Below, one piece after another: positions 43,776 to 62,470 of a stretch of DNA of 64,000 nt; within the stretch, counting starts at the first letter, position 1, and every line of letters starts with the position of its first letter. Below the pieces are notes generated by a model that saw only the letters and a list, made by a program, of their open reading frames with translations, had not been told where the DNA came from and ran no database searches. The position numbers were made by a program, and so were the translations under genes. Origin of the DNA: Candidatus Thorarchaeota archaeon (GTDB lineage Archaea; Asgardarchaeota; Thorarchaeia; Thorarchaeales; Thorarchaeaceae); contig DXJO01000018.1 of the NCBI GenBank assembly GCA_019057475.1, positions 1 to 64,000 on the forward strand. Direction: 5' to 3'.

Positions 43776-44834
43776 TCAGTTGGCTGCATCAGACACTTGC
43801 GCCTTGAAGCACGCAACTTCACGCCCGTCGCTCATCTTCAAGAGTTCAGGCTCCTTCTGACTGCACTCGTCACCCACAAACGGACATCTTGTATGGAACC
43901 TACAGCCGGATGGAATGCTGATTGGGTTGGGGGTCTCTCCTGTCAAGAGTATCCTGTTGCGTTCTACACCTATTTCAGGGACGGGAACAACGGAAACCAG
44001 TGCCTTTGTGTACTTGTGCATTGGCGAATCAATAATCTGCTTGGTTTCGCCTCTCTCAACTATCTTGCCTAGGTACGCTATCGCGATTCGGTCTGCGAGC
44101 TGTTTCGCTACCGCAAGGTTGTGCGTGATTATAATGATGGATATGTTCTTCTTCGCCCTAAGCTCCAAGAGCAAAGTAAGAATCTGACCGCGCATTGAAA
44201 CGTCCAGCATAGAAACCGGCTCGTCTGCTATTAGCAGATCTGGGTTTAGAACTAATGCGGCCGCGACCGCAACCCGCTGTCTTTGCCCTCCGCTTAGTTC
44301 GTGCGGCAATCGACCGACGAACTCATCTGGAGAATTTAGGCCTACATCCTCAAGAGCTGACCTCACTCGCTCGTCGACTTCGCATTCATCACGGCATATA
44401 TTGTGAATTCTAAGCGGCTCGGCGATAATGTCTTCAACAGTCATGTTATTGCTGAGAGAACCATAGGGATCTTGGAAAATCATTTGCATCCTCGTTCGGT
44501 ACTTCTTGAATTCTGATTCACTCATATCTGAAATCTTGTCACCGTCAAACCAAAGCTCCCCCTCTGTCAACGTTTCCAGTCGCATTATGAGCCTAGCGAT
44601 CGTGGTCTTGCCGCAGCCCGATTCGCCTGCAATGCAGAAGATCTCACCTCTCTTAACTTTCAAGTCTATGCCATCTACAGCACGGATGTATGTGGGCTCA
44701 GTTCTTTTGAAGATAGTTGAGAATAGTCCGCTTCTAACAGTGAACCACTTCTTGATGCCTCGTGCCTCCAATATTATATCTGACATCAGAACTCGTGCCT
44801 CCTCCAGCAAGCAACGCAGTGGCCATTCTCGCAT
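43776..44834 (-). CDS. Peptide ABC transporter ATPase, OppF/DppF-like (start probably 44786)
   Basis: [29 protein letters not shown]. Confidence 0.92.
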   Translation of the reverse strand: MREWPLRCLLEEARVLMSDIILEARGIKKWFTVRSGLFSTIFKRTEPTYIRAVDGIDLKVKRGEIFCIAGESGCGKTTIARLIMRLETLTEGELWFDGDKISDMSESEFKKYRTRMQMIFQDPYGSLSNNMTVEDIIAEPLRIHNICRDECEVDERVRSALEDVGLNSPDEFVGRLPHELSGGQRQRVAVAAALVLNPDLLIADEPVSMLDVSMRGQILTLLLELRAKKNISIIIITHNLAVAKQLADRIAIAYLGKIVERGETKQIIDSPMHKYTKALVSVVPVPEIGVERNRILLTGETPNPISIPSGCRFHTRCPFVGDECSQKEPELLKMSDGREVACFKAQVSDAAN

Positions 44835-45757
44835 TCAAGAGGTGGTACTTCCTGTCTACACCTGTCAACAGCGAAATCACACCTGGGATTGAATCTGCAA
44901 CCGCTTGGCGGATTAATGAGGTCCGGTGGATTTCCAGGAATGAAGTCTATCTCCTTATCGACTAGAATACTCGGAAATGATGAGATGAGTTTCTTCGTAT
45001 ACGGATGCTCAGGCATTGTGAAGATAGTATCAGTGCGGCCAGTTTCTACAATACGCCCTGCATACATTATGATGATTCTGTCACAAGTTTCAGCCAGAAC
45101 AGACAGGTCATGAGTAATCAGGAGGACTGATAGATTGGTCCTATCCCTCAACTGGTTAAAAAGGTCGAGAATCTGCGCTTGGACCATAACATCTAAAGCT
45201 GTCGTTGGCTCGTCCGCGATTATGATGGACGGATGGCAGACCAAAGCCAAAGCAATCATCAGGCGTTGCTTCATTCCACCGCTCAATTCATGGGGATATG
45301 AAGTGGCACGTGCAGGGTCGATTCCAACTGATTTGATCAACTCAAGCGAGCGCTCTTTCGCCTCCTGTTCTGTCACATCCTCGTGAATACGCAATGCAGT
45401 GATCATTTGGTCTATAGCCTTGTGGACTGGATTCAGAGCATTCATCGCTCCTTGGAATACCATGGAAATATCACGCCAACGAAGTGCTTCGACCTTTTTT
45501 GTATCATAGTCAAGTATGTTCTCGCCCTTGAATAGGATGACCCCTTCTTCCACCTTGCCCTCTTTGGGCAGCAAATGCATCAATGACAGCGCTGTAGTTG
45601 TCTTCCCGCAACCTGACTCGCCGCTCAGCCCTATGAACTCACCACGATGAATCCTGAAGCTAACATTCTCAGCTGCCTTCACTTTGCCCTGCTTGGTTTC
45701 GTAGGTGATTCGCAGGTTTTTCACCTCGAGGAAAACTTCGCGTTTTGTGTCAGCCAT
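44786..45757 (-). CDS. Peptide ABC transporter ATPase, OppD/DppD-like
   Basis: [32 protein letters not shown]. Confidence 0.92.
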
Positions 45758-45766
45758 GTCCTCGCA

Positions 45767-48523
45767 TCACCGCCTCCTCAATCGGGGGTTGGCAATCTCG
45801 TCCATGGCATATCCAAGCATGGAAACCCCCATCAACAGTAGAACCACCATGATTCCAGGTGGAAAGACCCACCACCAAAGATTCCCAGTCATTGCACCCG
45901 AGCCAAAGGCTTGGTATAACATTGTGCCCCAACTGACCATAGTTGGATCACCCAACCCAAAGAAATCAAGCACGACTTCAGAGAGAATCGCATAGGCTGT
46001 CACAAGAACTGTGTTGGCAACGATGAGCGGCGCTACTGCGGGGAGAATATGCTTAAACATGATGTAGGATTTGCTACCTCCGACCGCTCTTGCTCTCTCG
46101 ATGTAATCCCGCTCCTTAATTGTTAAAACCTGACCCCTTACTATGCGCGCAGTGGAAGGCCAAGAGAATATGCCTATGATAATAATCAACGAATAGACCG
46201 AAGGAGGAAGAATCGCACCAAGAATAATCATAATCACAAGACCAGGTATCACAAAGAAGATGTCGGTGAAACGCATCAAAAGCGAATCAGCAATGCCTCC
46301 ATAGTACCCCGCAAGCAGACCAATCATTCCTCCAATGAACATCGTAATCATTGTTGCGACTAGTCCGATGATGAGTGTGATGCGAACGCCGATGACAAGC
46401 TGACTGAATACATCTCGTCCAAGCTGGTCGGTACCCAAGAGATGGAACCCGGGAAAAGAGGTGGGATTGCCTGTAATTATCCACAATGAGGTCGTCATCA
46501 GAAGAGCAAGGCCCAAAGTCAGCATAGTCAAGCCGATAAGACGCTCCAAGGAGGGTCTCAACGCTGATTTTGTGATTTCTCTCAGTGCAGACCGCAAGTT
46601 GGGTAGTGCTAGAGCAAGACCTATCCCACCAAGCAAGAATGCACCTGCAGTGGCAAGAGAGCTTGCTCTAGCTAGCGAATGCGGAAGAAGGAGGATTGCA
46701 ACGTAAGCAAGAAAGGCTCCAATGAAAGCCCATTGAATTGAAGCAGAAATGTTTGGCCTATTACGATAGCTTGCGTACACCCACACCACGGCGCCTATCA
46801 CAAGGATAGCTAGACTGACATCTAGAAGAGCGGCTTGATCTAATGGTAGGGGTGTTGGGGGCTGTCGTGGTGTCCCTGTCAAATGGGCTGTGGGATCGTA
46901 TGGAGCAAGTATGTCTCCAAATATCGCGAGAGCAGCAAATGCGGAAACTGTTACTGCTCCAACAATGCCCATTTTGTTCCCTAGAATCTGCCTTACCATA
47001 GCGATTGTCTGCACCTGTCGATTCAGGAAGTAGCCATAAAGCCAGCCGGCCAATGATGTTATTGTAAGAAGAGGATGAGCGATGATGGAAGCTGACAACA
47101 TCAGGACATGTAACCAGCCCTCCAGCGATGACACGGGCGGAAACACGCTTGCGCCCACAAAGGTCGTGGCCCAAGATAGTACCCATTCCAGCCCATATGC
47201 GTTGGGCATCGCAAGTGCCACAATCATTACAATTGTGACAAACAGCACATTCAACGTTAGGACTAATTGCGATAGTCGAATAAGCAGCTGCGGCCGATGA
47301 TTCGTCCAGAGGTACGTCAGGTTCCCAGGTGAATAAAGCTTGGCTCTATTCCAAATGAACCTGAGGATATCTTGCCTTCGCACGAATACGAGGATGGCAA
47401 GTGTGCTAATCAGAAATAGTGCAGCATAAGAAGGTGCGAGGAGCAGAATAACAATGTCCAGGCACAGCAGCACTGTGGTTAAGTACGTGAAAGGGCGCAG
47501 AAACCACCCGAAAAACCCTCCCTTCTTCTCATCTGTGAGGGTGAACTCAGTTCCCACTCTGATTCGTGGGTCAAGCCAGTAGTACAGGAAATCAGCAGCA
47601 AGGTTGGCAAAGATCATAACCACAGTGATCACAAAGAATGTTCCCTGCAAAACGGGGTAATCCCTCCAAAGAATGCCGTCCCAGAGCAAACGTCCGATTC
47701 CGGGATATGAGAAAATGACCTCCACTTGAAGTGCACCAGCTACCGTGGCTCCGAGGTTCAGAGCTATGATAGTGGTTACAGGAATCATTGCATTTGGCAC
47801 GGCCTCTTTGTCCAGCTGATCCTTCTCAGTACGTCCTTTCGCTTTCGCTGTAATCATGTAGTCCTCACTAAGCACATCAAGCAGTGCATTTCTCATTATG
47901 AGCGCAAACACGCCAATCAAAGCTATTGTCAGTACACCCCAAGGTAAAATGAGTCGTCTGACGATTTCATAGGTAAAAAGTAAGGGATTACTAACGAAAT
48001 CTATGTTTGGGATAATTGCTGTTATCGGGAACCATCCAAGATTGACTGCGAACAGCATGATGAAGAACATAGAGAGGAAAAACGACGGAATGGAATAGGT
48101 CAGCAATGAGATGATTAGTCCAACGGCATCAGCACGCTCACCCCGTTTCCATGCAGAATGCTTTCCAATGTAGATGCCGATTGCTATGGAGGCAATGGTC
48201 GCAGGTAGAATGAGTAGCAGTGTATTGAGCAAACGGTGAAGTATCAATATTCCAACATCTGTCTGATATCGAAATGAGATACCGAAGTTACCTGTCAGGA
48301 AGTTGACAATGAATAGAAAAAACTGCTCAGGAAGCGGCTTGTCCAAGCCAAACGCTATGATGATTTGCTCCTGCGCAGCTTCAGGGATATTCGGGTTTCT
48401 GGCTAGGAATGTGGCAGGATCTCCCGGAAGCATATGGAAGAAGATGAAGTCGATAGCCAGTGCAATGAATATAGTAACAATGGCTTGTACGACTCTTTTC
48501 GCCAGTGTTCCTCTTAGACCCAA
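45767..48523 (-). CDS. Fused OppB-OppC ABC permease with extra TM segments
   Basis: OppB half (LPGDP, FGLDKP, AKAKG, RDYPVLQG, LDPRI) and OppC half (LGTDQLGRD, ARAVG, SWG, NPRLR) in one ORF. Confidence 0.9.
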   Translation of the reverse strand: MGLRGTLAKRVVQAIVTIFIALAIDFIFFHMLPGDPATFLARNPNIPEAAQEQIIIAFGLDKPLPEQFFLFIVNFLTGNFGISFRYQTDVGILILHRLLNTLLLILPATIASIAIGIYIGKHSAWKRGERADAVGLIISLLTYSIPSFFLSMFFIMLFAVNLGWFPITAIIPNIDFVSNPLLFTYEIVRRLILPWGVLTIALIGVFALIMRNALLDVLSEDYMITAKAKGRTEKDQLDKEAVPNAMIPVTTIIALNLGATVAGALQVEVIFSYPGIGRLLWDGILWRDYPVLQGTFFVITVVMIFANLAADFLYYWLDPRIRVGTEFTLTDEKKGGFFGWFLRPFTYLTTVLLCLDIVILLLAPSYAALFLISTLAILVFVRRQDILRFIWNRAKLYSPGNLTYLWTNHRPQLLIRLSQLVLTLNVLFVTIVMIVALAMPNAYGLEWVLSWATTFVGASVFPPVSSLEGWLHVLMLSASIIAHPLLTITSLAGWLYGYFLNRQVQTIAMVRQILGNKMGIVGAVTVSAFAALAIFGDILAPYDPTAHLTGTPRQPPTPLPLDQAALLDVSLAILVIGAVVWVYASYRNRPNISASIQWAFIGAFLAYVAILLLPHSLARASSLATAGAFLLGGIGLALALPNLRSALREITKSALRPSLERLIGLTMLTLGLALLMTTSLWIITGNPTSFPGFHLLGTDQLGRDVFSQLVIGVRITLIIGLVATMITMFIGGMIGLLAGYYGGIADSLLMRFTDIFFVIPGLVIMIILGAILPPSVYSLIIIIGIFSWPSTARIVRGQVLTIKERDYIERARAVGGSKSYIMFKHILPAVAPLIVANTVLVTAYAILSEVVLDFFGLGDPTMVSWGTMLYQAFGSGAMTGNLWWWVFPPGIMVVLLLMGVSMLGYAMDEIANPRLRRR

Positions 48524-48624
48524 AAAACCTCACCTTAAGTCCTGTGTACTACCAGTCTGCTAAAAAGATTGGAAGGAACAGACAGATATTATGCCTGTTC
48601 CATCCATTTTCTTGCTTTTTGATA

Positions 48625-50607
48625 TCAGCCTCTCCGTTTCATGTATACGATGCCTATGATCACGATTACAACCACAGCTATTCCAACGAGGGCAATCATC
48701 TCTATCGGGAACGCGGATGGCAAAAGGACATACACGTCAGCCTCAAGCCAAGACATCCAGTTCCAAATGGAAAAGATTCCTGATTCCCAGTCTGTATGAG
48801 CGAACTCCCATCTGTCGCTTCGATAGATTTCTAGGTCATTGAACTCCACAAGGATACAGACGCTGGCCTCATCATAGACAAGCTGCTGCATCTCATCGAT
48901 CAGGTCCTCACGTTCACTATCGTCAGCGAGCTTTTGCTCTGCATAGATTTCGTCTACGCGTGCAATGGAGAGTCCAGTCGGGTTAATCCAGCTCGGGGTT
49001 GTCATATACTGAGCGATGCTGTTGGGATCTGCTATCTGGGAATAGAACGTGACTGCCAGGTCGAAGTTTCGGCTACCCGCTGCGGTGTCAGTCACGAAGG
49101 TTGTTGTGTCAACTGCCTGAAGGGTTATGCCAAAGCCAGCAGCCTCAAGATCCGCCTCTATCAGTTGAACCATGCTCAGGTCAACCGGCGCGCCTGAAAC
49201 ATACTTCAAAGTAAACTCAAGAGCCTTGGTTGATCCATTGAGATCCTTTTCGTAGACCCCTCCGGTATTCTTAACCCAACCGTCCGCCTCAAGAGTTGCC
49301 ATCGCTTCAGCTGTACCAGCATCAAAGGTCACTAGTGCATTGTTGAACCATTTGAGTGTACTATGAACAACAGAGTCTGCAGGCTGAGCATGGTCCAGAT
49401 AGGCAATTTGAGCAATCTTTGTCTTGTTGATTGCCTGATTGATTGCCTTCTTGACCGAAAACTCACGCAACGCGAATTTGTCAGTCGTATTGCAGTAGTA
49501 CCAATCCTGGTCTATGAGTAGAGCTTCCCATCCAAGGAACGGGTTCTCATTGAGAGTAACTCCCTCAGTAGTTCCTAGAGACTCCAAGAATGGAGCTTCA
49601 GTTTCGCAGAAGTCGATTTCACCAGCCGCAAGAGCTTGTGTCATTGTTTCGATAGAGCTGTAGAACAGCACAGTAATGTTGTCGATGTTAGGGCGTCCCC
49701 ATTGATAGTCCTCATTTGCTTCAAGGAATGCGTACTCTCCGATTACGTACTCGGAAAGCTTGAACATGCCAGTGCCGACTTCTGGTGTGTCAAAGGTCGG
49801 TACAATAATGTTCCATGAGATTCCATCCCAGTTCAGGTAGTCCCAGTAGCCCCACGGGTCATAGCCGGTACCATTCAAACCCCACACGGGGTCGTTCCAT
49901 GTGATGGGGTCCCAGAGGTGCATCGGAAGTATTGGAACGTACGTAAGACCTGTAAGTAAGTACTCCTGGTTGACCTCGACAGGCGTACTATCGTATCGCT
50001 CATTCCAGTAATAGAAAGGAGCGCCAGCCATCCACGAATAGATGCTTGCGTACCCATTCTGCACGAAGTTAAGCACAACAGTATAGTCGTCAGGGCACTT
50101 GATGTTATAGTGATCGATGTGACCTGTTTGAGCTACCCACCAGCCCAACCATGTCCAAGTGAAGAGTGTCCAATTGACATCCGCTGACGTAAATGGAGTT
50201 CCGTCGTGCCATGTGGCATTCTGAACCAAATGCAAAGTCAGTTGAGTACCATTTTCAGCCCATTCCCAGGATTCTGCAAGGCCTCCCGTCACTCCCCAAT
50301 CATCATCCCAGCGCGTTAGCGGGTCATAGATCCAGTTGAAAAATTCCCATGAGGCTATGCTTCCCGCAAGAATTGGGTTCAGGTAGTCGGGCTCACCAAA
50401 CATACCCAGTTTGAATGGCTTTCCTGTTTCTTCTTCTTGCGCAACCACTTGCATCGGCGTATTGGCTAATACGGGTAGAACCATGGCCAGAACAAGAAGT
50501 AACGCGAGAATGTATTTTCGTCTTTTCACAAATATCACATCCAGTGAAGGACTGGGCTGAAATACACGGTGTACAATGATTAAAATCCACCGAACAACAG
50601 TGAACAA
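48625..50607 (-). CDS. Family 5 solute-binding protein with C-terminal membrane anchor (likely start GTG 50529)
   Basis: LNP, LAESWE, WHDGTPFTSADV, GTG.F; signal peptide and C-terminal TM. Confidence 0.9.
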   Translation of the reverse strand: MFTVVRWILIIVHRVFQPSPSLDVIFVKRRKYILALLLVLAMVLPVLANTPMQVVAQEEETGKPFKLGMFGEPDYLNPILAGSIASWEFFNWIYDPLTRWDDDWGVTGGLAESWEWAENGTQLTLHLVQNATWHDGTPFTSADVNWTLFTWTWLGWWVAQTGHIDHYNIKCPDDYTVVLNFVQNGYASIYSWMAGAPFYYWNERYDSTPVEVNQEYLLTGLTYVPILPMHLWDPITWNDPVWGLNGTGYDPWGYWDYLNWDGISWNIIVPTFDTPEVGTGMFKLSEYVIGEYAFLEANEDYQWGRPNIDNITVLFYSSIETMTQALAAGEIDFCETEAPFLESLGTTEGVTLNENPFLGWEALLIDQDWYYCNTTDKFALREFSVKKAINQAINKTKIAQIAYLDHAQPADSVVHSTLKWFNNALVTFDAGTAEAMATLEADGWVKNTGGVYEKDLNGSTKALEFTLKYVSGAPVDLSMVQLIEADLEAAGFGITLQAVDTTTFVTDTAAGSRNFDLAVTFYSQIADPNSIAQYMTTPSWINPTGLSIARVDEIYAEQKLADDSEREDLIDEMQQLVYDEASVCILVEFNDLEIYRSDRWEFAHTDWESGIFSIWNWMSWLEADVYVLLPSAFPIEMIALVGIAVVVIVIIGIVYMKRRG

Positions 50608-50616
50608 CCATGAACA
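50592..50616 (-). promoter_or_regulatory. TGTTCA-motif array upstream of the SBP gene
   Basis: (c)GAACA 50592, TGAACA 50601 and 50611: 10-bp period, adjacent to a TTTTAAT TATA-like box on the - strand. Confidence 0.6.
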
Positions 50617-50626
50617 TGGCTAGGCA

Positions 50627-51601
50627 TCATCGCTTCTTTACGCGGTACACAGCTAATGCCACGATGACAAGCAATGTAGCCGCAATGGCAACTGACTGTT
50701 CAAATGACAATCCCAACGTTGGAGGTGGAGTGGTTGATGATTCGAAACCCTCCACTAGCCACAGGGAGACCTTCATCATCATATCCCATTCGGAGCCCTG
50801 GTCATCAAACTCATTCTCCCAAATGCTGTTATCTCTCTGAGAGTCCTCCTCCCACTCTGGGTGAGGTCCAGAAAGGAACACGCGGCCAGAGTCGTATTCA
50901 AATGCGACCATTGCAGACTGGTTATTGACCGAGAATGTCGCCAGCGTGTGAATCCCATTTTGGCTCTCGCTTTCGAAGTAGGGTCCACCGTAGTACATGA
51001 CTGAATGCGTGGAGGGCTCTCCAGAGAAGTCGATGATATCCGAACTATGATTCACACTTATCTCGCACATATCGTAGTTTGGCCAGCTAGCAATCTCCTC
51101 GATTGAACCCACTCCCGTACCATCGAAGAGGTCAAGTGAATAATCATGGGTTGTTCCTTCCCAGGTGATCTTATCACAGGCAAAGTAAGCTCCAGCACAC
51201 ACACCAAAGAATGCGCCTCCCTCCCTCACAAACCGTCTAATCTCCGCAATTCCAATAGAGCCCAATTCATTGTTGTAGGTGACCGCCCAACCGCCCGGGA
51301 TGACTACCATGTCGTAGTTCGACAGTTTTCCGTCAATGATGTCTGAGGCATAGAGCAGGTCTGTACTTGCATTCATCCACTGAAACATGAATGTCAACGC
51401 GTTTCTACTACTCTGACTTGATGATTGGTCACCAAAGTAGACAGCCACGCTTACCCCTGAAAGGTCGATCCGATTAGCTGGTGTTTGGGCTTGAGTATTA
51501 GTGGCTAGAGTAAGAATGAACATTACTACAACTGCAAGTGCGACAAATGAGCGATAAGTTCTTGTGATGGCTTCAAGCTTCATTGAGAACCGACCGGACA
51601 T
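50627..51601 (-). CDS. Secreted, membrane-anchored BPL-N/class I GATase-like hydrolase
   Basis: IPGG, GVCAGAY (nucleophile Cys), YYGGP, SGPHPE (H-x-E); signal peptide and C-terminal TM. Confidence 0.8.
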   Translation of the reverse strand: MSGRFSMKLEAITRTYRSFVALAVVVMFILTLATNTQAQTPANRIDLSGVSVAVYFGDQSSSQSSRNALTFMFQWMNASTDLLYASDIIDGKLSNYDMVVIPGGWAVTYNNELGSIGIAEIRRFVREGGAFFGVCAGAYFACDKITWEGTTHDYSLDLFDGTGVGSIEEIASWPNYDMCEISVNHSSDIIDFSGEPSTHSVMYYGGPYFESESQNGIHTLATFSVNNQSAMVAFEYDSGRVFLSGPHPEWEEDSQRDNSIWENEFDDQGSEWDMMMKVSLWLVEGFESSTTPPPTLGLSFEQSVAIAATLLVIVALAVYRVKKR

Positions 51602-51656: not shown

Positions 51657-51725
51657 CTCTTGTTCAATCGTGAACACGGATGTTAGCACTCTTCATATCA
51701 TTGTTCATATCAAATACAGTACAGC
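51657..51725 (+). promoter_or_regulatory. Conserved 69-bp upstream element, copy 1
   Basis: Matches the reverse complement of 59031-59098 (47/53 identical over the first 53 nt); contains TGTTCA-N4-TGAACA. Confidence 0.8.
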
Positions 51726-51788: not shown

Positions 51789-53084
51789 ATGGTTGACGCC
51801 AAGGAAATCATGAAGAAAGACAAAGAGTACCTAGCAGCAGTCTATTCTCGTAAGCCAATCGTTGTATACGAAGGAAAGGGCGCAATTGTCAAGGATCTTG
51901 AAGGGCGAGAATATATCGATTGTTTGAGCGGCATCTCAGTTGTAAATGCCGGACATACGCCTGAACGCTTAGTGAGAGCAGGAACTGAGCAAATGAGAAG
52001 ACTCTGGCATTGCTCTGGCCTGTATTACAGCGTTCCTCAGACACTGCTTGCGGAAAAATTGGCCAGCATTGCACCGGGCGCACTCAGGAAATCTTTCTTC
52101 TGCAACAGTGGTGCTGAGGCGGTTGAGGGGGCTGTCAAGCTAGCAAAGAAGTTCGCGATATCTGAAGGTCGTACTGGAGCAGGTGTCATTGCCCTTGAGG
52201 GCTCATTCCACGGCAGACTTGCCTTATCTCTGACTTTGACCGGTCAAGCCAAGTACAAGAAAGGATTCGGGACATTCGCCAACCACCCGGGAGTTGTACA
52301 TGCTCCAGCACCCTATTGCTATCGATGTCCTCTGTCATATCCTGATTGTGGCGTTGAGTGTGCACGGAAGGTCGAGGACATCATCAAATACCACACAACT
52401 GGCGATGTAGCGGCGATGATAGTGGAACCAGTGATGGGTGAGGGAGGGATCATTGTACCGCCTGATGGATATCATGCAGAATTGCAGAAGATATGTCACG
52501 ACCATGAAATCCTCTTCATTGCGGATGAAGTGCAGACTGGCTTTGGCAGAACTGGCAAGATGTTTGCAAGTGACTTTTGGGACATCAAGCCCGATATTAT
52601 GACAATGGCGAAGGGGCTGGGGGCTGGCCTACCCATAGGCGCTGTGATGTATACTGATGAGATTGTGAGATGTTTGGTGTCAGGGGACCACTTCTCGACA
52701 TTTGGCGGAAATCCTGTTTGCTGTGCTGTTGCGCTGGAAAACATAGCATATTTGCAGGAAGAAGGGCTCTTGACCAATTCCAAGCATATTGGGAAGCTGC
52801 TCATGGAAGAGCTGCTATCCTTACAGCAGAAAAACGACATGATTGGAGATATCCGAGGAAAGGGGCTCATGATTGGCGTAGAGCTCGTGAAAGATAAGAC
52901 TTCCAAGAAACCCGCTGTTGAGCAGACAAAGAAGGTTGCAAAGGAAATGTTCAACAACAACATCCTGATAGGCACAGGTGGGGTCCACAGCAATGTCCTA
53001 CGCATACAGCCTCCGCTTTGCCTTTCAGACGAACAGGCCAAGAAAGTGTTGGACCTCCTAAAGGAGCAGCTGGGGGATCTCTAG
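51789..53084 (+). CDS. Class III PLP aminotransferase
   Basis: NSGAEAVE, SFHGR, EPVMGEGG, ADEVQTGFGRTG, MAKG, STFGGNP. Confidence 0.93.
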   Translation: MVDAKEIMKKDKEYLAAVYSRKPIVVYEGKGAIVKDLEGREYIDCLSGISVVNAGHTPERLVRAGTEQMRRLWHCSGLYYSVPQTLLAEKLASIAPGALRKSFFCNSGAEAVEGAVKLAKKFAISEGRTGAGVIALEGSFHGRLALSLTLTGQAKYKKGFGTFANHPGVVHAPAPYCYRCPLSYPDCGVECARKVEDIIKYHTTGDVAAMIVEPVMGEGGIIVPPDGYHAELQKICHDHEILFIADEVQTGFGRTGKMFASDFWDIKPDIMTMAKGLGAGLPIGAVMYTDEIVRCLVSGDHFSTFGGNPVCCAVALENIAYLQEEGLLTNSKHIGKLLMEELLSLQQKNDMIGDIRGKGLMIGVELVKDKTSKKPAVEQTKKVAKEMFNNNILIGTGGVHSNVLRIQPPLCLSDEQAKKVLDLLKEQLGDL

Positions 53085-53111
53085 GGATCACCAAGACTTG
53101 GAGGCTTTGAG

Positions 53112-54884
53112 GTGGAAAAGACTTCGATTAACCGCATCGAGGATACAATCAGGGGGCTTTGTCAGTTCGAGAATAGGATAGCCGGGTCCAAGAATGAAGC
53201 GCGTGCTGCGGAGTTCCTCATCAAACGTCTTCAAAGTTGTGGCATTCAGGATGTCAAAGAAAGCTCATTCTCTGTAATCAGCTGGAAACCCGTGAACTGC
53301 CAAGTCATGATTATTGAACCGCTTCGGCGAAAGATTGAGGCTGCACTCTTCCCTTGCTCTCCAAGCGCAGAAAGCAATGGCAATCTGATGGCAATCGATC
53401 AAACGTCCAATGAAACACTGAACAACGGGAGCCAGATAGGCCTTTCGCCTTGGGGTAAGCTGCTGTATCAATCAGTCACGACCGCCTATCATCAGGCTGT
53501 GAAACTCGGGCTTGAAGCAGTCCTGATTTCCGCACCCGATGATGGCGACCTGAGGAAGGTTGTAATCGTTGATTCTGGAGGGTCTTTGAAAATACCAGTG
53601 ATCAGCATCTCAAAGGAAGACGCGTCTTTTCTTTCAGACCTGATGGGGAGCTCGAAAGTTGTTCTTGAAGTAAGAACTGAAGTCGATGTGGACCCTGAGG
53701 CCCAGTCCAAGAATCTGGAAGTCGTAATCGAAGGAAACAAAGAATCTGAGCACGAGATTTGCATAGGGGCGCACTATGATGCTTGGTTCAAGGGCGCGGC
53801 TGACAACGCTGCACCAGTAGCTGTTGTCCTCGAACTCGCCCACCTTCTGAATGAATATGTCGTTAATGGAGGATCCCTGCTCAGAACTGTTAGGTTTCTA
53901 TTCTTTGGGGCTGAAGAGAGCGGATCAACGTCCTTCTATTACTGGATCAATGGCTCCAAAGCCTATGTAGCAGCCAACAAGGATACTGTGATCAAGACCG
54001 CGGCAATGCTCAGTTTGGATTCAATCGGATTCCCCCCTCCTGCTCCAAACAGTATCGGAGCTACTGGGGGTCTTCTTGCATTCGCTAAGAGCATTCAAGC
54101 TGGCCATGGAAATGCTTCCAATGTCACGTTCTTTGGTCCACCCGGATACGGAAGCGATCACTGGTTCTTCGAGATATCCGGCGTTCCAACAATTTACGGT
54201 CTAGCTTTTCCAAGCAAATTCTACCATACACAGAAAGACGACCCTGACAATTTGGACTACGACGGTGTGCATTTTCACGCGGAGTTCATGCGGAGCGCGC
54301 TATTCACCTTGGCAAATGCGCCTTTGTTGCCTCTCGACATGTTTGGTTCCTTGACGGAAATCGAGCGGATACTCACGCATTACAATGAGATGAAGGATTG
54401 TCCTTTTGATACAGCAAGTGTGGTGGCTAAAATTAAGCAGATTTGGGGCAAGAAGAAAGCCTTTGAGAAGGCTGCAAAATCCGCAATCGCCGCCAATAAC
54501 ACGAAGCTACTGGAAAAGATGAACCGGTTCCATGTGTTGACTGCTCGTACATGCAACCGTACAATAGGACGGACTCTGCGAAGCTCATCTTCTTCCGGTG
54601 TTAGCTATTTGGCAAGATTGGAATTGATTGCAGATTATATGGAAATCCGCGCAGCCGTCAACAGGTTAAAACAGATGCCAATCGCAAATCTAGCAAATGA
54701 AACAATCAAGAGACTTGAATCACAAGAAGACAACCCATTCAGCTGGGTTTCGATTCATGAACCGTTGGGAACCCTTGAGAAAGAAGCAGCTCGGATATCA
54801 CGTGTGGTGGAAAACGAGCTCACTAACCTGTTAGAAGCAATCGATGCTATTTGGCAAGATATGGAAGAACTAGTATCAGAATAG
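53112..54884 (+). CDS. M28-family metallo-hydrolase with PA-like insert
   Basis: GAHYD, GAADN, AEESG, GSDH, YHT. Confidence 0.85.
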   Translation: MEKTSINRIEDTIRGLCQFENRIAGSKNEARAAEFLIKRLQSCGIQDVKESSFSVISWKPVNCQVMIIEPLRRKIEAALFPCSPSAESNGNLMAIDQTSNETLNNGSQIGLSPWGKLLYQSVTTAYHQAVKLGLEAVLISAPDDGDLRKVVIVDSGGSLKIPVISISKEDASFLSDLMGSSKVVLEVRTEVDVDPEAQSKNLEVVIEGNKESEHEICIGAHYDAWFKGAADNAAPVAVVLELAHLLNEYVVNGGSLLRTVRFLFFGAEESGSTSFYYWINGSKAYVAANKDTVIKTAAMLSLDSIGFPPPAPNSIGATGGLLAFAKSIQAGHGNASNVTFFGPPGYGSDHWFFEISGVPTIYGLAFPSKFYHTQKDDPDNLDYDGVHFHAEFMRSALFTLANAPLLPLDMFGSLTEIERILTHYNEMKDCPFDTASVVAKIKQIWGKKKAFEKAAKSAIAANNTKLLEKMNRFHVLTARTCNRTIGRTLRSSSSSGVSYLARLELIADYMEIRAAVNRLKQMPIANLANETIKRLESQEDNPFSWVSIHEPLGTLEKEAARISRVVENELTNLLEAIDAIWQDMEELVSE

Positions 54885-54902
54885 GAAAATGGAGGAATCA
54901 GA

Positions 54903-55793
54903 GTGGCAAGAAAACTGGGTGTGGCTGGTCTTCAGTTGAAGAAAGACTTTAGCGACGCAGAGTCCAATATCATCAAATTCGAAACTATGACACGAACAGC
55001 AAAGGCGTCATATCCATGGGTGGATCTAATTTTCACTGGTGAACTATACCTTCAACAGTATGGAACCAAAGATTGGAAGGATTTCGCTGAGCCCATCCCA
55101 AATACTTTGACTGATCGACTATCGCGTCTTGCTAAGAGAACTCATTGCTGGTTGGTTCCTGGCTCCTTTCTCGAGCGAGACGGTTCGCGAATCTTCAATA
55201 CCTCGATTGCGTTCAATCCAGACGGGGAGATAGTAGTGAAGTACAGGAAGATTTTCCCATGGGCTCCACACGAAGATACGGATCAAGGTACCGAGTTCAT
55301 CACATTCGACATCCCCGGAATAGCAAGAGTAGGCATGACCATTTGCTACGATTTATGGTTCCCAGAGTTGTTCAGGACACTTGCATGGATGGGATCTGAA
55401 GTCATTCTGCAGCCGTCTGCGACATACACCCCTGATAGGGACGCCGAGTTGATTCTAACGCCAGCTCAGGCCATCATGCACCAATGCTATATTCTCAATG
55501 TGAACACAATCAGTCCTCACGGAGGAGGACGGTCGATGTTTGCAGATCCAGAAGGGTATGTTATCCAGAAGACTGGCACTCACGAGGAAATGATGATTGA
55601 GGTCATTGATATAGACAAGGTTGCATGGATCCGACAACATGGTTCCTTCGCACTCAACCCGGTTTGGAAGAGCTTCAGGGACTCGCCCTTGAACGGGAAA
55701 TTCCCGCCGTATGAGAATCTACAAGACGGCGAGATACTCAAGACACTCGGGGAAATGAAGCTTCAGAAGAGTATCAGAGATTGGGACGTTTAG
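54903..55793 (+). CDS. Nitrilase-superfamily C-N hydrolase
   Basis: E-K-C triad: TGEL, YRKIFP, ICYD. Confidence 0.9.
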   Translation: MARKLGVAGLQLKKDFSDAESNIIKFETMTRTAKASYPWVDLIFTGELYLQQYGTKDWKDFAEPIPNTLTDRLSRLAKRTHCWLVPGSFLERDGSRIFNTSIAFNPDGEIVVKYRKIFPWAPHEDTDQGTEFITFDIPGIARVGMTICYDLWFPELFRTLAWMGSEVILQPSATYTPDRDAELILTPAQAIMHQCYILNVNTISPHGGGRSMFADPEGYVIQKTGTHEEMMIEVIDIDKVAWIRQHGSFALNPVWKSFRDSPLNGKFPPYENLQDGEILKTLGEMKLQKSIRDWDV

Positions 55794-55811
55794 ACCCGGG
55801 AGACAGCTAAC

Positions 55812-57101
55812 ATGTCAGATAAGGGTGAAGTAGTTAAGGAGTGGATACGAGAGCATAGCGACTCGCTAATCACTCTGACTCAAGAACTAGTTCGCATCCC
55901 CAGCATCACCGGACACGAGTTTAATGTTCAGGAATACATCCTGAAGCGCTTAGATCGCCTAGGTCTCGAGCCATGGATGGTTCTGCCAGATGTCGATGTT
56001 TTAAGAAAGGACGCCGACTTCTTTGAAACATCGTCTTTCGTCAAGTATGGATACGAGAACCGACCCAACGTTGCCGGCATCCTTAAGGGGTCCGGCAATG
56101 GCCGGTCGATATGTCTTAGCGGGCACGTTGACGTTGTATCCCCAGAGCCCGTTGGCCAGTGGTCCTATGACCCTTGGTCTGGTGAAGTTGACGACGGGAT
56201 GATCTATGGTCGAGGGGCAGGCGATATGAAGGCAGGTATCGCCGCCATGATTATCGCATTGGAGGCAATCAGGAGGGCCGACGTCAAGCTAAAGGGCGAT
56301 GTTCATGTGGAAACGACAATTGAAGAAGAGGATGGTGGAGTAGGCGGCAATCTCTACATGAGACTGACGCAACCACGAACGGATGGTGCGATAAACCCCG
56401 AACCAACCAGCCTACAGATTGGCATGGCTAGTGCAGGAGTCATGTACTTTAGGGTAATTTCCTTCGGCGTCCCAGCCCATGCTGCCACTGCGCACTTTGG
56501 AGTCAACGCAATACACAAGATGCTTCCCCTCATTGAGGCGCTTCGAACTCTAAATGAAAGGAGACAACAGAGAATCTCCTATGCTTATGCCGAAGCTATG
56601 AGTCCTAGGATGAAAGGGCGAGTGACCACAATCAACATAGGAGTTGTTAGGGCGGGCGATTGGCCCTCAACAGTTCCAGGGACATGTGAGATAGAATGCA
56701 GAATAGGCTGGCCGCCCGGGGAAACCCGGGAGGAAGTGATGAGTGAAGTTGAAGAGTGCATAACAAACGCATATCAGAATGACTCATGGCTCCGCGACCA
56801 TCCTCCCAAGGTGGAGTGGTTCGGATGGCGGGCAAGGCCCCACGAGCAAGACGTCCAAGATCCGTTTGTCCTTTGCATAAGAAACCAAATTGCAAAGGCG
56901 ACTAAGAAAAGCCCAGTCCTGTACGGAGGTTCAGCAGGCCTTGATACGCGATTTTTCGTGAACCATGGCACTCCGGCTGTGACATTCGGACCTGCCGCGC
57001 AAAGAATTCATTCGTTTGATGAATGCGTGAGCATTGAGTCAATTGTGACGACAGCTGAAGTGATAGCTGCAACGATAATGGACTGGTGTGGTGTGGCCTA
57101 A
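55812..57101 (+). CDS. ArgE/DapE (M20) family deacylase
   Basis: GHVDVV, GRGAGDMKAG, EEE, EPT, HAA, H..DE. Confidence 0.9.
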   Translation: MSDKGEVVKEWIREHSDSLITLTQELVRIPSITGHEFNVQEYILKRLDRLGLEPWMVLPDVDVLRKDADFFETSSFVKYGYENRPNVAGILKGSGNGRSICLSGHVDVVSPEPVGQWSYDPWSGEVDDGMIYGRGAGDMKAGIAAMIIALEAIRRADVKLKGDVHVETTIEEEDGGVGGNLYMRLTQPRTDGAINPEPTSLQIGMASAGVMYFRVISFGVPAHAATAHFGVNAIHKMLPLIEALRTLNERRQQRISYAYAEAMSPRMKGRVTTINIGVVRAGDWPSTVPGTCEIECRIGWPPGETREEVMSEVEECITNAYQNDSWLRDHPPKVEWFGWRARPHEQDVQDPFVLCIRNQIAKATKKSPVLYGGSAGLDTRFFVNHGTPAVTFGPAAQRIHSFDECVSIESIVTTAEVIAATIMDWCGVA

Positions 57102-59030: not shown

Positions 59031-59098
59031 GCTGTACTACATGCTTATGAACAACGATATGAAATATGCTAACATCCGTGTTCATGATTGTACAAGAG
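59031..59098 (-). promoter_or_regulatory. Conserved upstream element, copy 2 (inverted)
   Basis: Reverse complement of 51657-51725; 18-bp identical core TGAACACGGATGTTAGCA. Confidence 0.8.
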
Positions 59099-59200
59099 CG
59101 TACGCTTCAAGTTGTTCAAGTCTGTTCAAGAGTGTTAGGTTTCTTTTTCTACATGTTCACATCATCGTGACCATTGATGCGATTCTGTGAGTAGACACGT

Positions 59201-59848
59201 ATGAATGACTCCGTCAATAAGCTAAAGGAAGCTGTTATCAAAGGTGACTACAAAAACACCCCTGACCTCGCCAGAGAAGCTCTCGAGGCAGGTGTATCCC
59301 CTATTGAGGTTCTTAAGAAAGGGATTACAGACGCGGCTACGATTGTAGGGGATCAGTTTGAGCGGATGGAGATATACCTCCCGGAGCTGATGATGTCAGG
59401 AAAAGCAATGATGGCAGGCATTGATGTCATTCTACCCAGGATTTCGTCTAGCGATGATGTAATCAAGGGCAGGGTCGTTGTTGGAACTGCGCTAGGAGAT
59501 GTACACGAGATTGGCAAGAACATTCTCAAGGTTCTGCTAATCGCTAGTGGTTTCGAGGTAAGCGACCTGGGAGTGAATGTTCCCACTTCCAAGTTTATTC
59601 AGGAAGCAGAGAGAATCAACGCAGACATAATTGCAATATCTGCCCTGATGACTTCCACACTGGGAGGACAGAAAGATGTCATCGATTATCTGCGAGAAAC
59701 AGGGAAACGTGACAAATACATCATAATGGTGGGTGGAGGTCCGACCAACAAGCAGTGGGCAGACACGATAGGTGCCGATGGCTTTGCAGAATCAGCTCCT
59801 GATGCAGTCAGGGAGGCAATTAGGTTGATCGAAGAACGGAGGGGATAG
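59201..59848 (+). CDS. Methyltransferase corrinoid protein (MtmC/MtaC-like)
   Basis: YLPELM cap, GDVHEIGK (DxHxxG), DLG..VP, SALMT, VGGGP. Confidence 0.92.
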   Translation: MNDSVNKLKEAVIKGDYKNTPDLAREALEAGVSPIEVLKKGITDAATIVGDQFERMEIYLPELMMSGKAMMAGIDVILPRISSSDDVIKGRVVVGTALGDVHEIGKNILKVLLIASGFEVSDLGVNVPTSKFIQEAERINADIIAISALMTSTLGGQKDVIDYLRETGKRDKYIIMVGGGPTNKQWADTIGADGFAESAPDAVREAIRLIEERRG

Positions 59849-59850
59849 AT

Positions 59851-61230
59851 ATGCTGCCTGTCATAGAGATAACAAAGCGGTGTCTTGAAGGAACACCATG
59901 CCTTGAGAGTGACTTTGACCTAGAGATTTTCGCACCTAGAGTCAGAGAGCTTGTCAAGGAATATGGCATAGCATATGACACTGATGTCATTGTGCCCTCA
60001 GACAACGGATTGGCGGACTCGGTGTTCAAGGCTGCCGTGGAATTGGTTGTTGATGTGGGGATGTTCTGCAAGGATACAGAGCGGATTGTCAAGTTTGAAG
60101 AGCAGGAGGTCCGGAAAGCAATCAAGACCGCTCAACGAGAAACCACCTTCGGTGAAGGCGAGGAACGGAGAACACTGCGCTCACGAACTCCAGAATCCAA
60201 GGACCACCCGTGGATATTCGCGGGAGCAGGAGGGGTGACAGTATCAAATGAAAACATCTTCATGCGACTTGTTGAAAACTATGCCAGAATGATACCGAAA
60301 GCCAATGCCATCACAACACCCTGTCTGCTTGAGGTGGATGGAATGAGCATTCGGGCGCGTTCGCCTCTTGAGATTGTGGGTTCAATTCGAACTGTGATGC
60401 TTGGCCGCGAAGCATTGCGAAGGGCGGAACGGCCAGGACTTCCCATTATGAATGGAATAAGCACTGCTGAATCGGCAGTTGCTCTTATCTCCGGATTGCA
60501 TCCTGATTTTGGGCTCAGAAAGTCAGACGGGTATATGATCTCCCTGTTAGCTGAGCTGAAGACAGACTTTGACCTGCTTAATCGTGCTGCACTGCTTCAA
60601 TCCATTGATGTCCCAATAGCCGGGATCTACGGGCCCATATTCGGTGGTTTCGCAGGTGGGGCTGAAGGGACTGCAATAGCATCGGTCGCGTTTCACATCC
60701 TAGCCATGCTCGCATATCGTGCTTCTTGGACCCTTTGTTTCCCCATCCATATCAAACACATTTCAAGCTCATCTCCTGAACTCATCTGGACCGCTAGTGT
60801 GTACTCACAAGCGGTTTCCAGAAACACTGAACTACCTGCGTTGTACTACCCCTACACCGCCGCAGGACCATGCACGGACATGGTTCTTCGGGAATTTGCC
60901 GCCCAGTTCATTGCGGCCATATCTTCAGGAGTTTCAATAGAAACAGGAGGCGTGGCGAAAGGAAAGTATTTCGACTATCTCACGCCGATTGAACCAATGT
61001 TCGGTTCAGAGGTTGCGTACGCAGCAGCAGGTCTAAAACGATCTGATGCAGATGATATGGTCAAAGAGCTACTATCCAGGTTCATAGAAAAAATCCCGAA
61101 CCCGCCGAAAGGGAGCAGGTTTCAAGAGTGCTGTGACCAGACAACAGGTAAGCCTTCAAAGAAGTGTTTCAGCATATACAAGAAGGTGAGGGATGAGGTC
61201 TCGGACCTCGGAATCGAGTTCTCCAGCTAG
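59851..61230 (+). CDS. MtmB-family methyltransferase lacking pyrrolysine
   Basis: 459 aa; KEYGI, VPSD..LAD..F.AA, RIVKF, SPLE, RPG, ELK.D, GGFAGG.EG, AGPCT; uninterrupted ORF. Confidence 0.85.
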   Translation: MLPVIEITKRCLEGTPCLESDFDLEIFAPRVRELVKEYGIAYDTDVIVPSDNGLADSVFKAAVELVVDVGMFCKDTERIVKFEEQEVRKAIKTAQRETTFGEGEERRTLRSRTPESKDHPWIFAGAGGVTVSNENIFMRLVENYARMIPKANAITTPCLLEVDGMSIRARSPLEIVGSIRTVMLGREALRRAERPGLPIMNGISTAESAVALISGLHPDFGLRKSDGYMISLLAELKTDFDLLNRAALLQSIDVPIAGIYGPIFGGFAGGAEGTAIASVAFHILAMLAYRASWTLCFPIHIKHISSSSPELIWTASVYSQAVSRNTELPALYYPYTAAGPCTDMVLREFAAQFIAAISSGVSIETGGVAKGKYFDYLTPIEPMFGSEVAYAAAGLKRSDADDMVKELLSRFIEKIPNPPKGSRFQECCDQTTGKPSKKCFSIYKKVRDEVSDLGIEFSS

Positions 61231-61270: not shown

Positions 61271-62470
61271 TTAATGAGAATGGCCTCGACCCGCTCCGTG
61301 CTGCTCACCGAAGTACAGAACAGCTGTGGCTTCGCCTTCTTCTCGGCTCATCTCCTCTATTCCGTCAAGACTTAGGAGACTCCGTATTAGCTTAATCGCG
61401 AGATCCTTTGTGACTGGGGTTCTAGATCTCACCTGAACCCGAACAAGGTCTCCATCCGCCGTGACATTGCATTTCTCAAGCAGCCCCGAAGATGTGACGT
61501 TCAGAGCTGACCTCCTGACCCGATCCAGAATAGTCATAGATACATCAGAACCAACCACATCTGGCTGAGGGCCAAAGTCCTTTATGCTAACTAGAGTTCT
61601 CTCTCCGATGGCATCATTGATTGTGTGAGTGGCCAACCACTCCAAGAGCGGCGGACAGAGAGTGGCACGTCCACTCTGACCGGCTTGCATGAGGAACCTC
61701 TCACGTCGGCTTTTCCAGGCTTCGAAGATTCTCCTGTCGCGGTTTCCTTTTAGAAACCGAAACTCGCGATCATCGACCCACCTTAAACTAACCTTATTCT
61801 CAGCAATAACTTCAACATCGACGGTATAGCCTGCTTCATCCCAACTTGCTAGGAGCAGGAGTAGAAGGGTTTCAGGCTGATTTCGCATCATCTTGATGGT
61901 AGCCATAACCGTTCTGCGATCCGAATAATCTTCAACAGACCTGAGAACTCCCATCGTTTCTAGCAACTGCACGTGGAGTACAAATGCCTCGTATGTATTT
62001 TCCCAAATTTCCTGAGGGACAGTGCCGAGTCTGCGCAGTAGCTTTGTCTGTTGAGTGCCAAGCTTGTCAATTCGATCCTTAAATTCGCTGGCTGAGAACC
62101 TTGTCTGTCCGAAATCTGACAGTGCATCAAAGAATGCCGACGCAGCAAGGCCCATGTCCGCAGCATCAACTAAGGAGGCCAAGAGCTTTGAGATAGCCTT
62201 GAATTCACAATCATCACAATCTGGTTGGTTTCGTCGAATGCTGTAATAGCCGATTGCTTCCTCAATGACTTCGTTAATGCGCCCAGTTTCGCCGCTTAGG
62301 GATTTTAGCAGATCTCTAGTTTGCGCTGACACAGTTGTATGGATGTGAACGCGAGGACCACCTTTCACATAACCACGAGGTGCTTCGTCCTGTGTGTTTG
62401 AAGTTTTTTTCATGAACACACTCACCGATTCATGTTCAAGATGGCTCCTCTTAATGTGGCATGTGAACAT
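61271..62470 (-). CDS. Putative transcription regulator: N-terminal RHH-like domain, CxxC and repeated ligand-binding-like domains (likely start 62413)
   Basis: VHIHTTVSAQTRDLLKSL...INEVIEEAI, CDDC; TGTTCA motifs surround its start. Confidence 0.55.
   Translation of the reverse strand: MFTCHIKRSHLEHESVSVFMKKTSNTQDEAPRGYVKGGPRVHIHTTVSAQTRDLLKSLSGETGRINEVIEEAIGYYSIRRNQPDCDDCEFKAISKLLASLVDAADMGLAASAFFDALSDFGQTRFSASEFKDRIDKLGTQQTKLLRRLGTVPQEIWENTYEAFVLHVQLLETMGVLRSVEDYSDRRTVMATIKMMRNQPETLLLLLLASWDEAGYTVDVEVIAENKVSLRWVDDREFRFLKGNRDRRIFEAWKSRRERFLMQAGQSGRATLCPPLLEWLATHTINDAIGERTLVSIKDFGPQPDVVGSDVSMTILDRVRRSALNVTSSGLLEKCNVTADGDLVRVQVRSRTPVTKDLAIKLIRSLLSLDGIEEMSREEGEATAVLYFGEQHGAGRGHSH

Follow-up and report, generated by a model that had tools for sequence, protein, structure and literature searches.

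A pyrrolysine-free MtmB homolog and its cognate corrinoid protein in a predicted regulon of a Thorarchaeota archaeon

Described relatives of a Thorarchaeota gene pair

Two described systems come closest to the one considered here. In Methanosarcina barkeri, MtmB1, in which an in-frame UAG encodes pyrrolysine (Pyl), is paired with the corrinoid protein MtmC, and the methyl group is passed by MtbA to coenzyme M. In the methanogen Methanococcoides methylutens Q3c, where the methyl group also reaches coenzyme M, the Pyl-free MtmB homolog MtqB, partnered with MtqC, transfers methyl groups from tetramethylammonium and choline to cob(I)alamin, with monomethylamine supporting only a low activity of 11 nmol/min/mg (Kashyap et al. 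2026; PMC13044021). Here we analyzed a 64,000-nucleotide (nt) stretch of the genome of Candidatus Thorarchaeota archaeon (positions 1 to 64,000 of contig DXJO01000018.1, assembly GCA_019057475.1; hereafter, the window), in which a gene for a predicted corrinoid protein, mtxC, immediately precedes a gene for a Pyl-free MtmB homolog.

Pyl-free MtmB homologs are already described as a large family and are known in Asgard archaea. In a 1,061-sequence tree, the MtqB clade, consisting of Methanococcoides, Methanosarcina and some bacteria, was located near the Pyl enzymes, the remaining non-Pyl MtmBs were of unknown function, and their occurrence across Asgard archaea was remarked upon (PMC13044021). 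An earlier non-Pyl protein of the MtmB superfamily comes from a dichloromethane fermenter (PMC9768040), and MtmB has been listed for Sifarchaeia, the only in-frame UAG there being in MtbB (PMC9723677). Furthermore, several Asgard lineages have been proposed to live by a non-methanogenic methylotrophy that is linked to MtrH and involves non-Pyl MttB, and the modules predicted for Asgard archaea, Brockarchaeia and Culexarchaeia have the same component architecture as the system analyzed here (PMC11291895).

This architecture, namely a first methyltransferase (MT1), a corrinoid protein, a pterin methyltransferase and RamA, is also that of the MttB-superfamily systems built on the non-Pyl quaternary-amine methyltransferases MtgB, MtpB, MtcB and MtyB. 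The loss of Pyl in non-Pyl MttB enzymes accompanies a change of substrate, as it would here, but the MttB-type MT1 is unrelated in sequence to the MtmB-type MT1 of the window. With MtqB/MtqC, the present pair shares a Pyl-free MtmB-family enzyme, an adjacent corrinoid gene (of MtbC-like annotation) and, apparently, the logic of a non-methylamine substrate. New here are a clade of MtmB homologs marked by Met-Asn at the Pyl site, a four-site operator, an operon in the complete Thorarchaeota genome G236, and recurrent neighbors encoding aminotransferases, (methyl)malonate-semialdehyde dehydrogenase (MSDH), MttB and transporters.

A full-length MtmB homolog without pyrrolysine

The protein encoded by the mtmB homolog, the sole PF05369 gene in the genome, matched the Pfam profile with 321 bits (cut-off 25) over positions 3-450 of 450. 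The closest proteins, 73-75% identical and all 459 amino acids (aa) long, come from metagenome-assembled genomes of Thorarchaeota, Hermodarchaeota, Sifarchaeia and Promethearchaeota. A single-sequence phmmer comparison matched M. barkeri MtmB (1L2Q) with an E-value of 2e-65, and a profile built from 32 homologs matched it (1L2Q/1NTH) with an E-value of 4.5e-104. The AlphaFold model (predicted local distance difference test score 93.3) was aligned by Foldseek to the TIM barrel of 1NTH with a template modeling (TM) score of 0.95, a root-mean-square deviation of 1.4 A over 457 columns and an E-value of 1e-43; the two proteins are of the same length, share 32% identity and have a GRPG motif before the catalytic strand. 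These comparisons identify a full-length member of the MtmB family with a predicted MtmB fold.

The upstream gene, separated by 2 nt and located on the same strand, encodes a protein with a DVHEIG motif starting at residue 100, the His-ligand motif of the DxHxxG type that is also found in the partner of M. barkeri MtmB. It scored 203 bits, just below the cut-off, against TIGR02370, the model of methyltransferase-cognate corrinoid proteins, with MtgC/MtbC-type models ranking next. A full-length enzyme gene lacking an amber codon and adjoined by a corrinoid gene is how non-Pyl MtmB homologs have been described (PMC13044021), and the mtxC-mtmB pair is, by its sequence, of this kind. A previous inspection of the letters and their translations (the sequence-only reading) had regarded 59201-61230 as one continuous open reading frame (ORF) without in-frame TAG. 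The span in fact comprises two ORFs, but the mtmB homolog indeed has no in-frame TAG, nor any other internal stop. The core of that reading, a Pyl-free MtmB homolog with a cognate corrinoid protein, was borne out by the Pfam match, the alignments, the structural model and the Pyl-less genome described below.

At the Pyl site, where M. barkeri MtmB reads RPGMGV-Pyl-GPETS, the homolog reads RPGLPI-M-N-GIST, one residue longer, with ATG as codon 200 and AAT (Asn) as codon 201. The alignment based on the profile of 32 homologs places Met200 opposite Pyl202 and makes Asn201 a one-residue insertion, whereas the single-sequence alignment sets the gap one position earlier, so that Asn201 faces Pyl; neither places Lys or TAG at the site. 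In the AlphaFold model, Ile199-Met200 forms the end of the strand, an arrangement that favors Met200 as the positional equivalent of Pyl. Thus, of the assignment made by eye in the sequence-only reading, Met at the Pyl position, the profile alignment and the modeled strand boundary speak for it and the single-sequence alignment against it. Among the 32 homologs, Asn201 is invariant and Met200 at least 90% conserved, and Met-Asn occupies the site in 82 of 84 metagenomic homologs.

In a profile search of the 96.4%-complete genome, PylS, PylB, PylC and PylD all remained far below their curated cut-offs. A tRNA with a CUA anticodon was not found among the 25 tRNAs recovered from the assembly, a number so small that this result carries little weight. 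TAG is the commonest stop codon in the genome, ending 43% of the ORFs of at least 300 codons, and it terminates both mtxC and the mtmB homolog. Across Asgard archaea, 48 of 301 sampled genomes contained PF05369 matches, none with an in-frame TAG. With neither an in-frame UAG nor genes for Pyl proteins detected, the homolog does not qualify as a Pyl-dependent MtmB in the strict sense, and the use of monomethylamine by the Pyl mechanism is excluded. Unlike M. barkeri, the host also shows no evidence of methanogenesis. As a separate observation, the genome contains tRNA-Sec (anticodon TCA), and the organism therefore probably decodes selenocysteine.

Monomethylamine or another simple methylamine could still be the normal substrate, activated by a Pyl-independent mechanism. 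The retained fold, the presence of most family-wide conserved residues and the measurable activity of MtqB with monomethylamine agree with this alternative; since even MtqB has this activity, low as it is, use of monomethylamine would also count for less against a different substrate than the sequence-only reading had supposed. However, in the single-sequence alignment, Glu205, Glu229 and Glu259 of M. barkeri MtmB, which are reported to line the methylamine site (Hao et al. 2002), a role that our literature search did not confirm, correspond to Ser204, Met229 and Ile259. Moreover, the Pyl machinery is missing, and the Opp-type importer and hydrolases of the regulon described below would be needless for free methylamine. 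Taken together, these points make a simple methylamine a very improbable normal substrate.

The shared operator and the surrounding island

The promoter of mtxC contains three TGTTCA boxes and a TGTT, and it includes a match, at 59113, to the composite pattern TGT[TA]CA-N4-TG[TA][TA]CA-N4-TGTT. This composite operator has 4 sites in the 3.34-Mb genome, compared with ~0.01 expected, and all four are promoters in the island surrounding the pair, namely those of oppA, the aminotransferase operon, the metallopeptidase-like gene M28b and mtxC (Table 1). All 16 relatives examined also have it in front of mtxC, including genome G236, where the operon contains mtrH and ramA, and the M28 and oppA promoters of the relatives bear it as well; the Opp/M28/M20 neighborhood is likewise conserved in the 16 relatives. 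When the sequences preceding mtxC were aligned from 15 genomes, the boxes proved to be invariant amid scrambled flanks. Within the island, TGTTCA/TGAACA boxes are concentrated between the genes; over the whole window, single copies of TGTTCA are hardly more frequent than expected (62 against 48.8), and only the clustered or composite form is significant. The motif statistics and the conservation of the operator thus make co-regulation of mtxC-mtmB with the importer, hydrolase and aminotransferase genes a well-supported prediction. TGTTCA also occurs in repeat arrays with 11- and 41-nt spacing at the ends of two other contigs (C4:7353-7520 and C27:2-87), which look like a tandem repeat, or one resembling clustered regularly interspaced short palindromic repeats (CRISPR), split between the two contigs and unrelated to the island operator.

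Table 1. Coordinates of the genes, sites and operators of the island in the window
Feature	Position	Strand	Basis or remark
Import operon	43776..51601	-	Pfam, NCBIfam, signal and anchor segments
Importer ATPases	44786-45757 and 43776-44834	-	Pfam, NCBIfam
Fused permease	45767-48523	-	Pfam, NCBIfam
Opp/Dpp-type substrate-binding protein	48625-50607	-	Pfam, NCBIfam
Operator, oppA promoter	50616	-	Composite pattern
Secreted GATase1/BPL_N-like protein	50627-51601	-	Pfam, signal segment
Operator/promoter of aminotransferase operon, inverted-repeat arm	51657..51709, composite at 51661	+	Pattern, repeat
Aminotransferase operon	51789..57101	+	Pfam, NCBIfam
Class-III aminotransferase	51789-53084	+	Best PDB match GabT
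M28a	53112-54884	+	Pfam
C-N hydrolase/amidase	54903-55793	+	Pfam, NCBIfam
M20 ArgE/DapE-type deacylase	55812-57101	+	Pfam, NCBIfam
M28b, cytoplasmic M28-family metallopeptidase-like, 613 aa	57153..58994	-	PF04389; divergent from mtxC
Operator/promoter of M28b, other inverted-repeat arm	59046..59098, composite at 59094	-	Pattern, repeat
Operator/promoter of mtxC	59113..59159	+	TGTTCA at 59113, 59123 and 59154; TGTT at 59133; composite at 59113
mtxC, cognate corrinoid (B12-binding) protein, 215 aa	59201..59848	+	PF02310 and PF02607; DxHxxG at residues 100-105
Pyrrolysine-free MtmB-family methyltransferase (MT1), 459 aa	59851..61230	+	PF05369, no in-frame stop
Codons Met200-Asn201, occupying the Pyl site	60448..60453	+	Alignments; clade signatures
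Candidate regulator, 399 aa, RHH-like N-terminus, AF_0136-like C-terminus	61271..62470	-	Convergent with mtmB homolog

In 15 related loci, the genes follow one order: an M28 gene on the opposite strand, then the genes for a secreted GATase1-like protein, the Opp/Dpp binding protein, the fused permease and two ATPases, followed by mtxC and mtmB; behind mtmB come a gene on the opposite strand for a 360-400-aa protein of an unknown family and either an M20 deacylase or a deacetylase plus a short-chain dehydrogenase/reductase. The importer operon of these relatives leads straight on to mtxC-mtmB, all of these genes having one orientation, and mtxC precedes the mtmB homolog in all Thorarchaeota-type loci. 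In the window, by comparison, the importer operon is inverted onto the minus strand, and the block encoding the aminotransferase, M28a, the C-N hydrolase, the M20 deacylase and M28b is located between it and mtxC. A 53-nt inverted repeat, whose promoter-carrying arms are 89% complementary and 7336 nt apart, brackets this block, and M28a and M28b are 50% identical. The inverted promoter repeat, the paralogy of the two M28 genes and the inverted Opp operon together suggest duplication and inversion through promoter copies relative to the gene order of other Thorarchaeota.

The gene convergent with the mtmB homolog is the best candidate for the regulator. Its product (true start possibly Met20) has no Pfam or NCBIfam match; its ribbon-helix-helix (RHH)-like N-terminus is joined to a C-terminal part resembling the AF_0136 family by language-model features, with a lead to PF27313 clusters at a score of 0.92. 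A homolog of this gene adjoins mtmB in every relative whose retrieved DNA reaches the position, namely in 14 of the 15 loci (locus L019 ends before it) and in L039 and L043. Three TGTTCA boxes are located at its 5' end (62413-62469), and in the relatives boxes are found in the same place. The RHH-like protein probably controls the regulon.

Inspection of signal segments indicated that the M28, M20 and amidase products of the island are cytoplasmic; in particular, no signal peptide was seen in M28b. Since these genes are accompanied by the Opp importer, the compound used in the Thorarchaeota clade is suggested to arrive as a peptide or amide conjugate, and it is plausible that the hydrolases supply the substrate. 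Supply by the hydrolases had been proposed in the sequence-only reading: the link to the neighboring genes held, through the shared operator and the conserved neighborhood, but the supply itself, the order of action, the substrate and the product are conjectures from gene content.

Gene neighborhoods and candidate substrates

The MtmB family comprises 961 cluster representatives at 50% identity, with a highly variable loop at the Pyl site. In a FastTree phylogeny of 347 full-length members, for which sampling was biased towards the two query proteins, the window protein was placed in an Asgard subclade (support 1.0) nested in a 162-tip clade with Met-Asn at the site (0.996). This Met-Asn clade spans archaea and bacteria, including Bathyarchaeia, Thermoplasmata, Nitrososphaeria, Chloroflexota, Spirochaetota and Deltaproteobacteria, and is itself nested in an x-Asn clade (1.0) that contains a His-Asn group of other Asgard paralogs. 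Its signature residues, rare elsewhere, are W121, R180, M200, N201, T205, G227, L295, F297 and Y335.

The tree bears on the possibility that the protein is a functional ortholog of MtqB, that is, a tetramethylammonium/choline:corrinoid methyltransferase, and that the peptide and amide genes around it are unrelated to its substrate. MtqB is the sole characterized non-Pyl MtmB and a quaternary-amine user, from a family whose non-Pyl members are found across Asgard archaea (PMC13044021), and the active-site face of the window protein, rich in Met and aromatic residues, resembles the published description of the MtqB pocket. However, the MtqB clade, placed here by the description in its paper as near the Pyl enzymes and consisting of Methanococcoides, Methanosarcina and some bacteria, looks separate from the Met-Asn clade, which has different neighbors. 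The one Methanosarcinales member retrieved, the non-Pyl homolog P0355 of Methanohalobium, which stands in for MtqB and is not MtqB itself, fell outside the Met-Asn clade. The neighbors of the clade encode amino-acid and peptide transporters and aminotransferases rather than choline-type proteins, and the operator ties the mtmB homolog to hydrolase and importer genes. We consider orthology with MtqB distinctly improbable.

To survey the wider clade, 80 metagenome loci (42-74% identity) were dereplicated at 80% identity into 30 lineages, 23 of which had at least 4 kb of flanking sequence, and neighbors were counted within 6 kb of the mtmB homolog in these 23. A corrinoid protein was encoded in 17 lineages, a non-Pyl MttB in 9, a class-III aminotransferase in 8, a saccharopine/carboxyspermidine-dehydrogenase-like protein in 5, a Liv-type ATP-binding cassette transporter in 5, an APC permease in 3, an aldehyde dehydrogenase in 4, an aldehyde:ferredoxin oxidoreductase in 3, MtrH in 4 and RamA in 2. 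Both of the aldehyde dehydrogenases tested proved to be MSDHs, scoring 469 and 411 bits against 1T90, and 6 of the 7 members of that group are mutually 48-56% identical. Operons such as mtxC-mtmB-MSDH-aminotransferase-mttB occur among the metagenome loci. The window aminotransferase is 48-49% identical to the mtmB-linked aminotransferases of loci L100 and L047 and at most 39% identical to its own paralogs.

These neighborhoods cut both ways for another candidate class of donor, in which the methyl group would come from a modified residue set free from imported peptides, such as an N-epsilon-methyl-lysine, an N-methyl amino acid of the N-terminus or the methyl-histidine of anserine-type dipeptides, rather than from a free beta- or omega-amino-acid betaine. 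The Thorarchaeota-type pair directly follows the Opp/Dpp operon, is flanked by M28 and M20 genes and shares one operator with them; the M20 protein is an ArgE/DapE-type deacylase; and saccharopine-dehydrogenase-like genes and class-III aminotransferases, families that also serve lysine catabolism, recur. Outside the Thorarchaeota clade, however, the neighbors encode permeases for amino acids and transporters of the Liv type but no peptidases, and a C3/C4 beta-amino acid accords better than lysine with the recurrent dehydrogenase, which belongs to the (methyl)malonate-semialdehyde group. A donor of this peptide-derived kind therefore appears quite unlikely.

The downstream steps can be traced in G236, in which mtxC, mtmB, mtrH, ramA and the gene for the protein of the candidate regulator type are tightly packed on one strand. 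In the genome of the window, contig C40 carries an MtrH-RamA-corrinoid cluster whose MtrH and RamA are 62% and 58% identical to their G236 counterparts. Predicted genes for all four components, MT1, corrinoid protein, second methyltransferase and reductive activase, are thus present, the first two in the window and the rest on C40. The genome also encodes a methenyl-tetrahydromethanopterin cyclohydrolase, a methylenetetrahydrofolate reductase (MTHFR)-like protein beside two further mtrH copies, and a non-Pyl MttB homolog.

On this evidence, we think it rather probable that the enzyme is an MT1 acting on a beta- or omega-amino acid methylated at nitrogen, either as such or as its peptide or amide conjugate, that MtrH hands the removed methyl group on to tetrahydromethanopterin (H4MPT), and that the genes form a one-operator regulon. 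As judged from family membership, the TIM barrel with its Met-Asn site would demethylate some nitrogen compound, though not monomethylamine, and deliver the methyl group to the Co(I) corrinoid of MtxC. Synteny suggests that an MtrH-type methyltransferase would then discharge the methyl-corrinoid to H4MPT, whereas M. barkeri uses coenzyme M, and that a RamA-type activase would repair the oxidized cofactor. The regulon would unite mtxC-mtmB with the Opp/Dpp-type importer, two M28 hydrolases, the amidase, the M20 deacylase and the class-III aminotransferase. An aminotransferase together with MSDH constitutes the established route for beta-alanine or 3-aminoisobutyrate, and a beta- or omega-amino-acid donor is proposed for this reason. 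Beta-alanine betaine or a methylated aminobutyrate would be donors of the expected type, which might enter the cell in peptide- or amide-conjugated form and be released by the hydrolases, and the gene neighborhoods in many lineages indicate that the demethylated amine would be transaminated and oxidized.

Several points weigh against this proposal. We know of no precedent for the activation of a non-quaternary amine without Pyl, and a single demethylation of a quaternary amine does not yield an amine that can be transaminated. The functions of the Met-Asn clade are predictions from sequence and gene context, and whether Met200 or Asn201 takes the place of Pyl is ambiguous at the level of single residues. 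The metagenome contigs behind the neighborhood statistics were chosen by similarity to the query. In the genome of the window, the mtrH-ramA and MSDH genes are located on other contigs and lack the operator. The aminotransferase and amidase were absent from the retrieved neighborhoods of the Thorarchaeota relatives, so that these genes of the island could be peculiar to the present genome. The one characterized relative, MtqB, uses quaternary amines (PMC13044021). As to the fate of the methyl group, CdhC, the acetyl-CoA synthase, was not found in the genome, and a feed of the methyl group into this enzyme was rejected here for that reason.

A more far-reaching version, which we regard as tentative and on balance unlikely, is that the Met-Asn MtmB, alone or with an adjacent non-Pyl MttB, forms an enzyme set for the complete anaerobic demethylation of a beta- or omega-amino-acid betaine, with beta-alanine betaine as the leading candidate. 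The free amino acid would be converted to acetyl-CoA via the aminotransferase and MSDH, and the methyl groups would, in Asgard archaea, enter H4MPT via MtrH. If true, tertiary and secondary N-methyl amines would be activated without Pyl. More generally, the non-Pyl MtmBs form hundreds of sequence clusters, only one with a known substrate. Assigning a substrate to the Met-Asn clade would identify a methylated nitrogen compound that has a widespread anaerobic sink in sediments and would show the means by which Asgard archaea, Bathyarchaeia, Chloroflexota and others draw on methyl groups in competition with methylotrophic methanogens. The island is a well-defined test case: its enzyme pair, of just two genes, should be expressible as MtqB was, its importer has a binding protein of its own, its candidate regulator comes with a sharp operator, and recurrent partners narrow the range of substrates.

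Several minor observations concern related genes. Tandem Met-Asn-type mtmB paralogs, 53-70% identical, follow a single corrinoid gene in loci L064, L101, L111 and L118, and one or two non-Pyl mttB genes adjoin mtmB homologs in several lineages; such sets may serve several related substrates or successive demethylation steps. The overlapping, 99-100% identical tandem copies in L073 and L074 were set aside as assembly or ORF-calling artifacts. In the genome of the window, a third MtxC-type corrinoid gene is located directly upstream of a gene for an MtaA/MtbA-type methyltransferase of the URO-D family (C29:115498-117133), and a gene on the opposite strand follows, whose 413-aa product lacks any Pfam match; the corrinoid and methyltransferase genes apparently form a second methyl-transfer module, in which the MT1 is not obvious. 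RACo/RamA-type matches at C40:105584-106345 and C47:95062-95823 each show one stop when their frames are read through, a TGA in the former and a TAG in the latter; on C40 the gene is an intact 537-aa ORF, and the TGA probably lies outside it. Finally, a cluster at C46:29794-34854 encodes MSDH, a class-III aminotransferase and a C-N hydrolase, the latter two being paralogs of the window aminotransferase and amidase, and looks like a degradation module of the beta-alanine/pyrimidine type.

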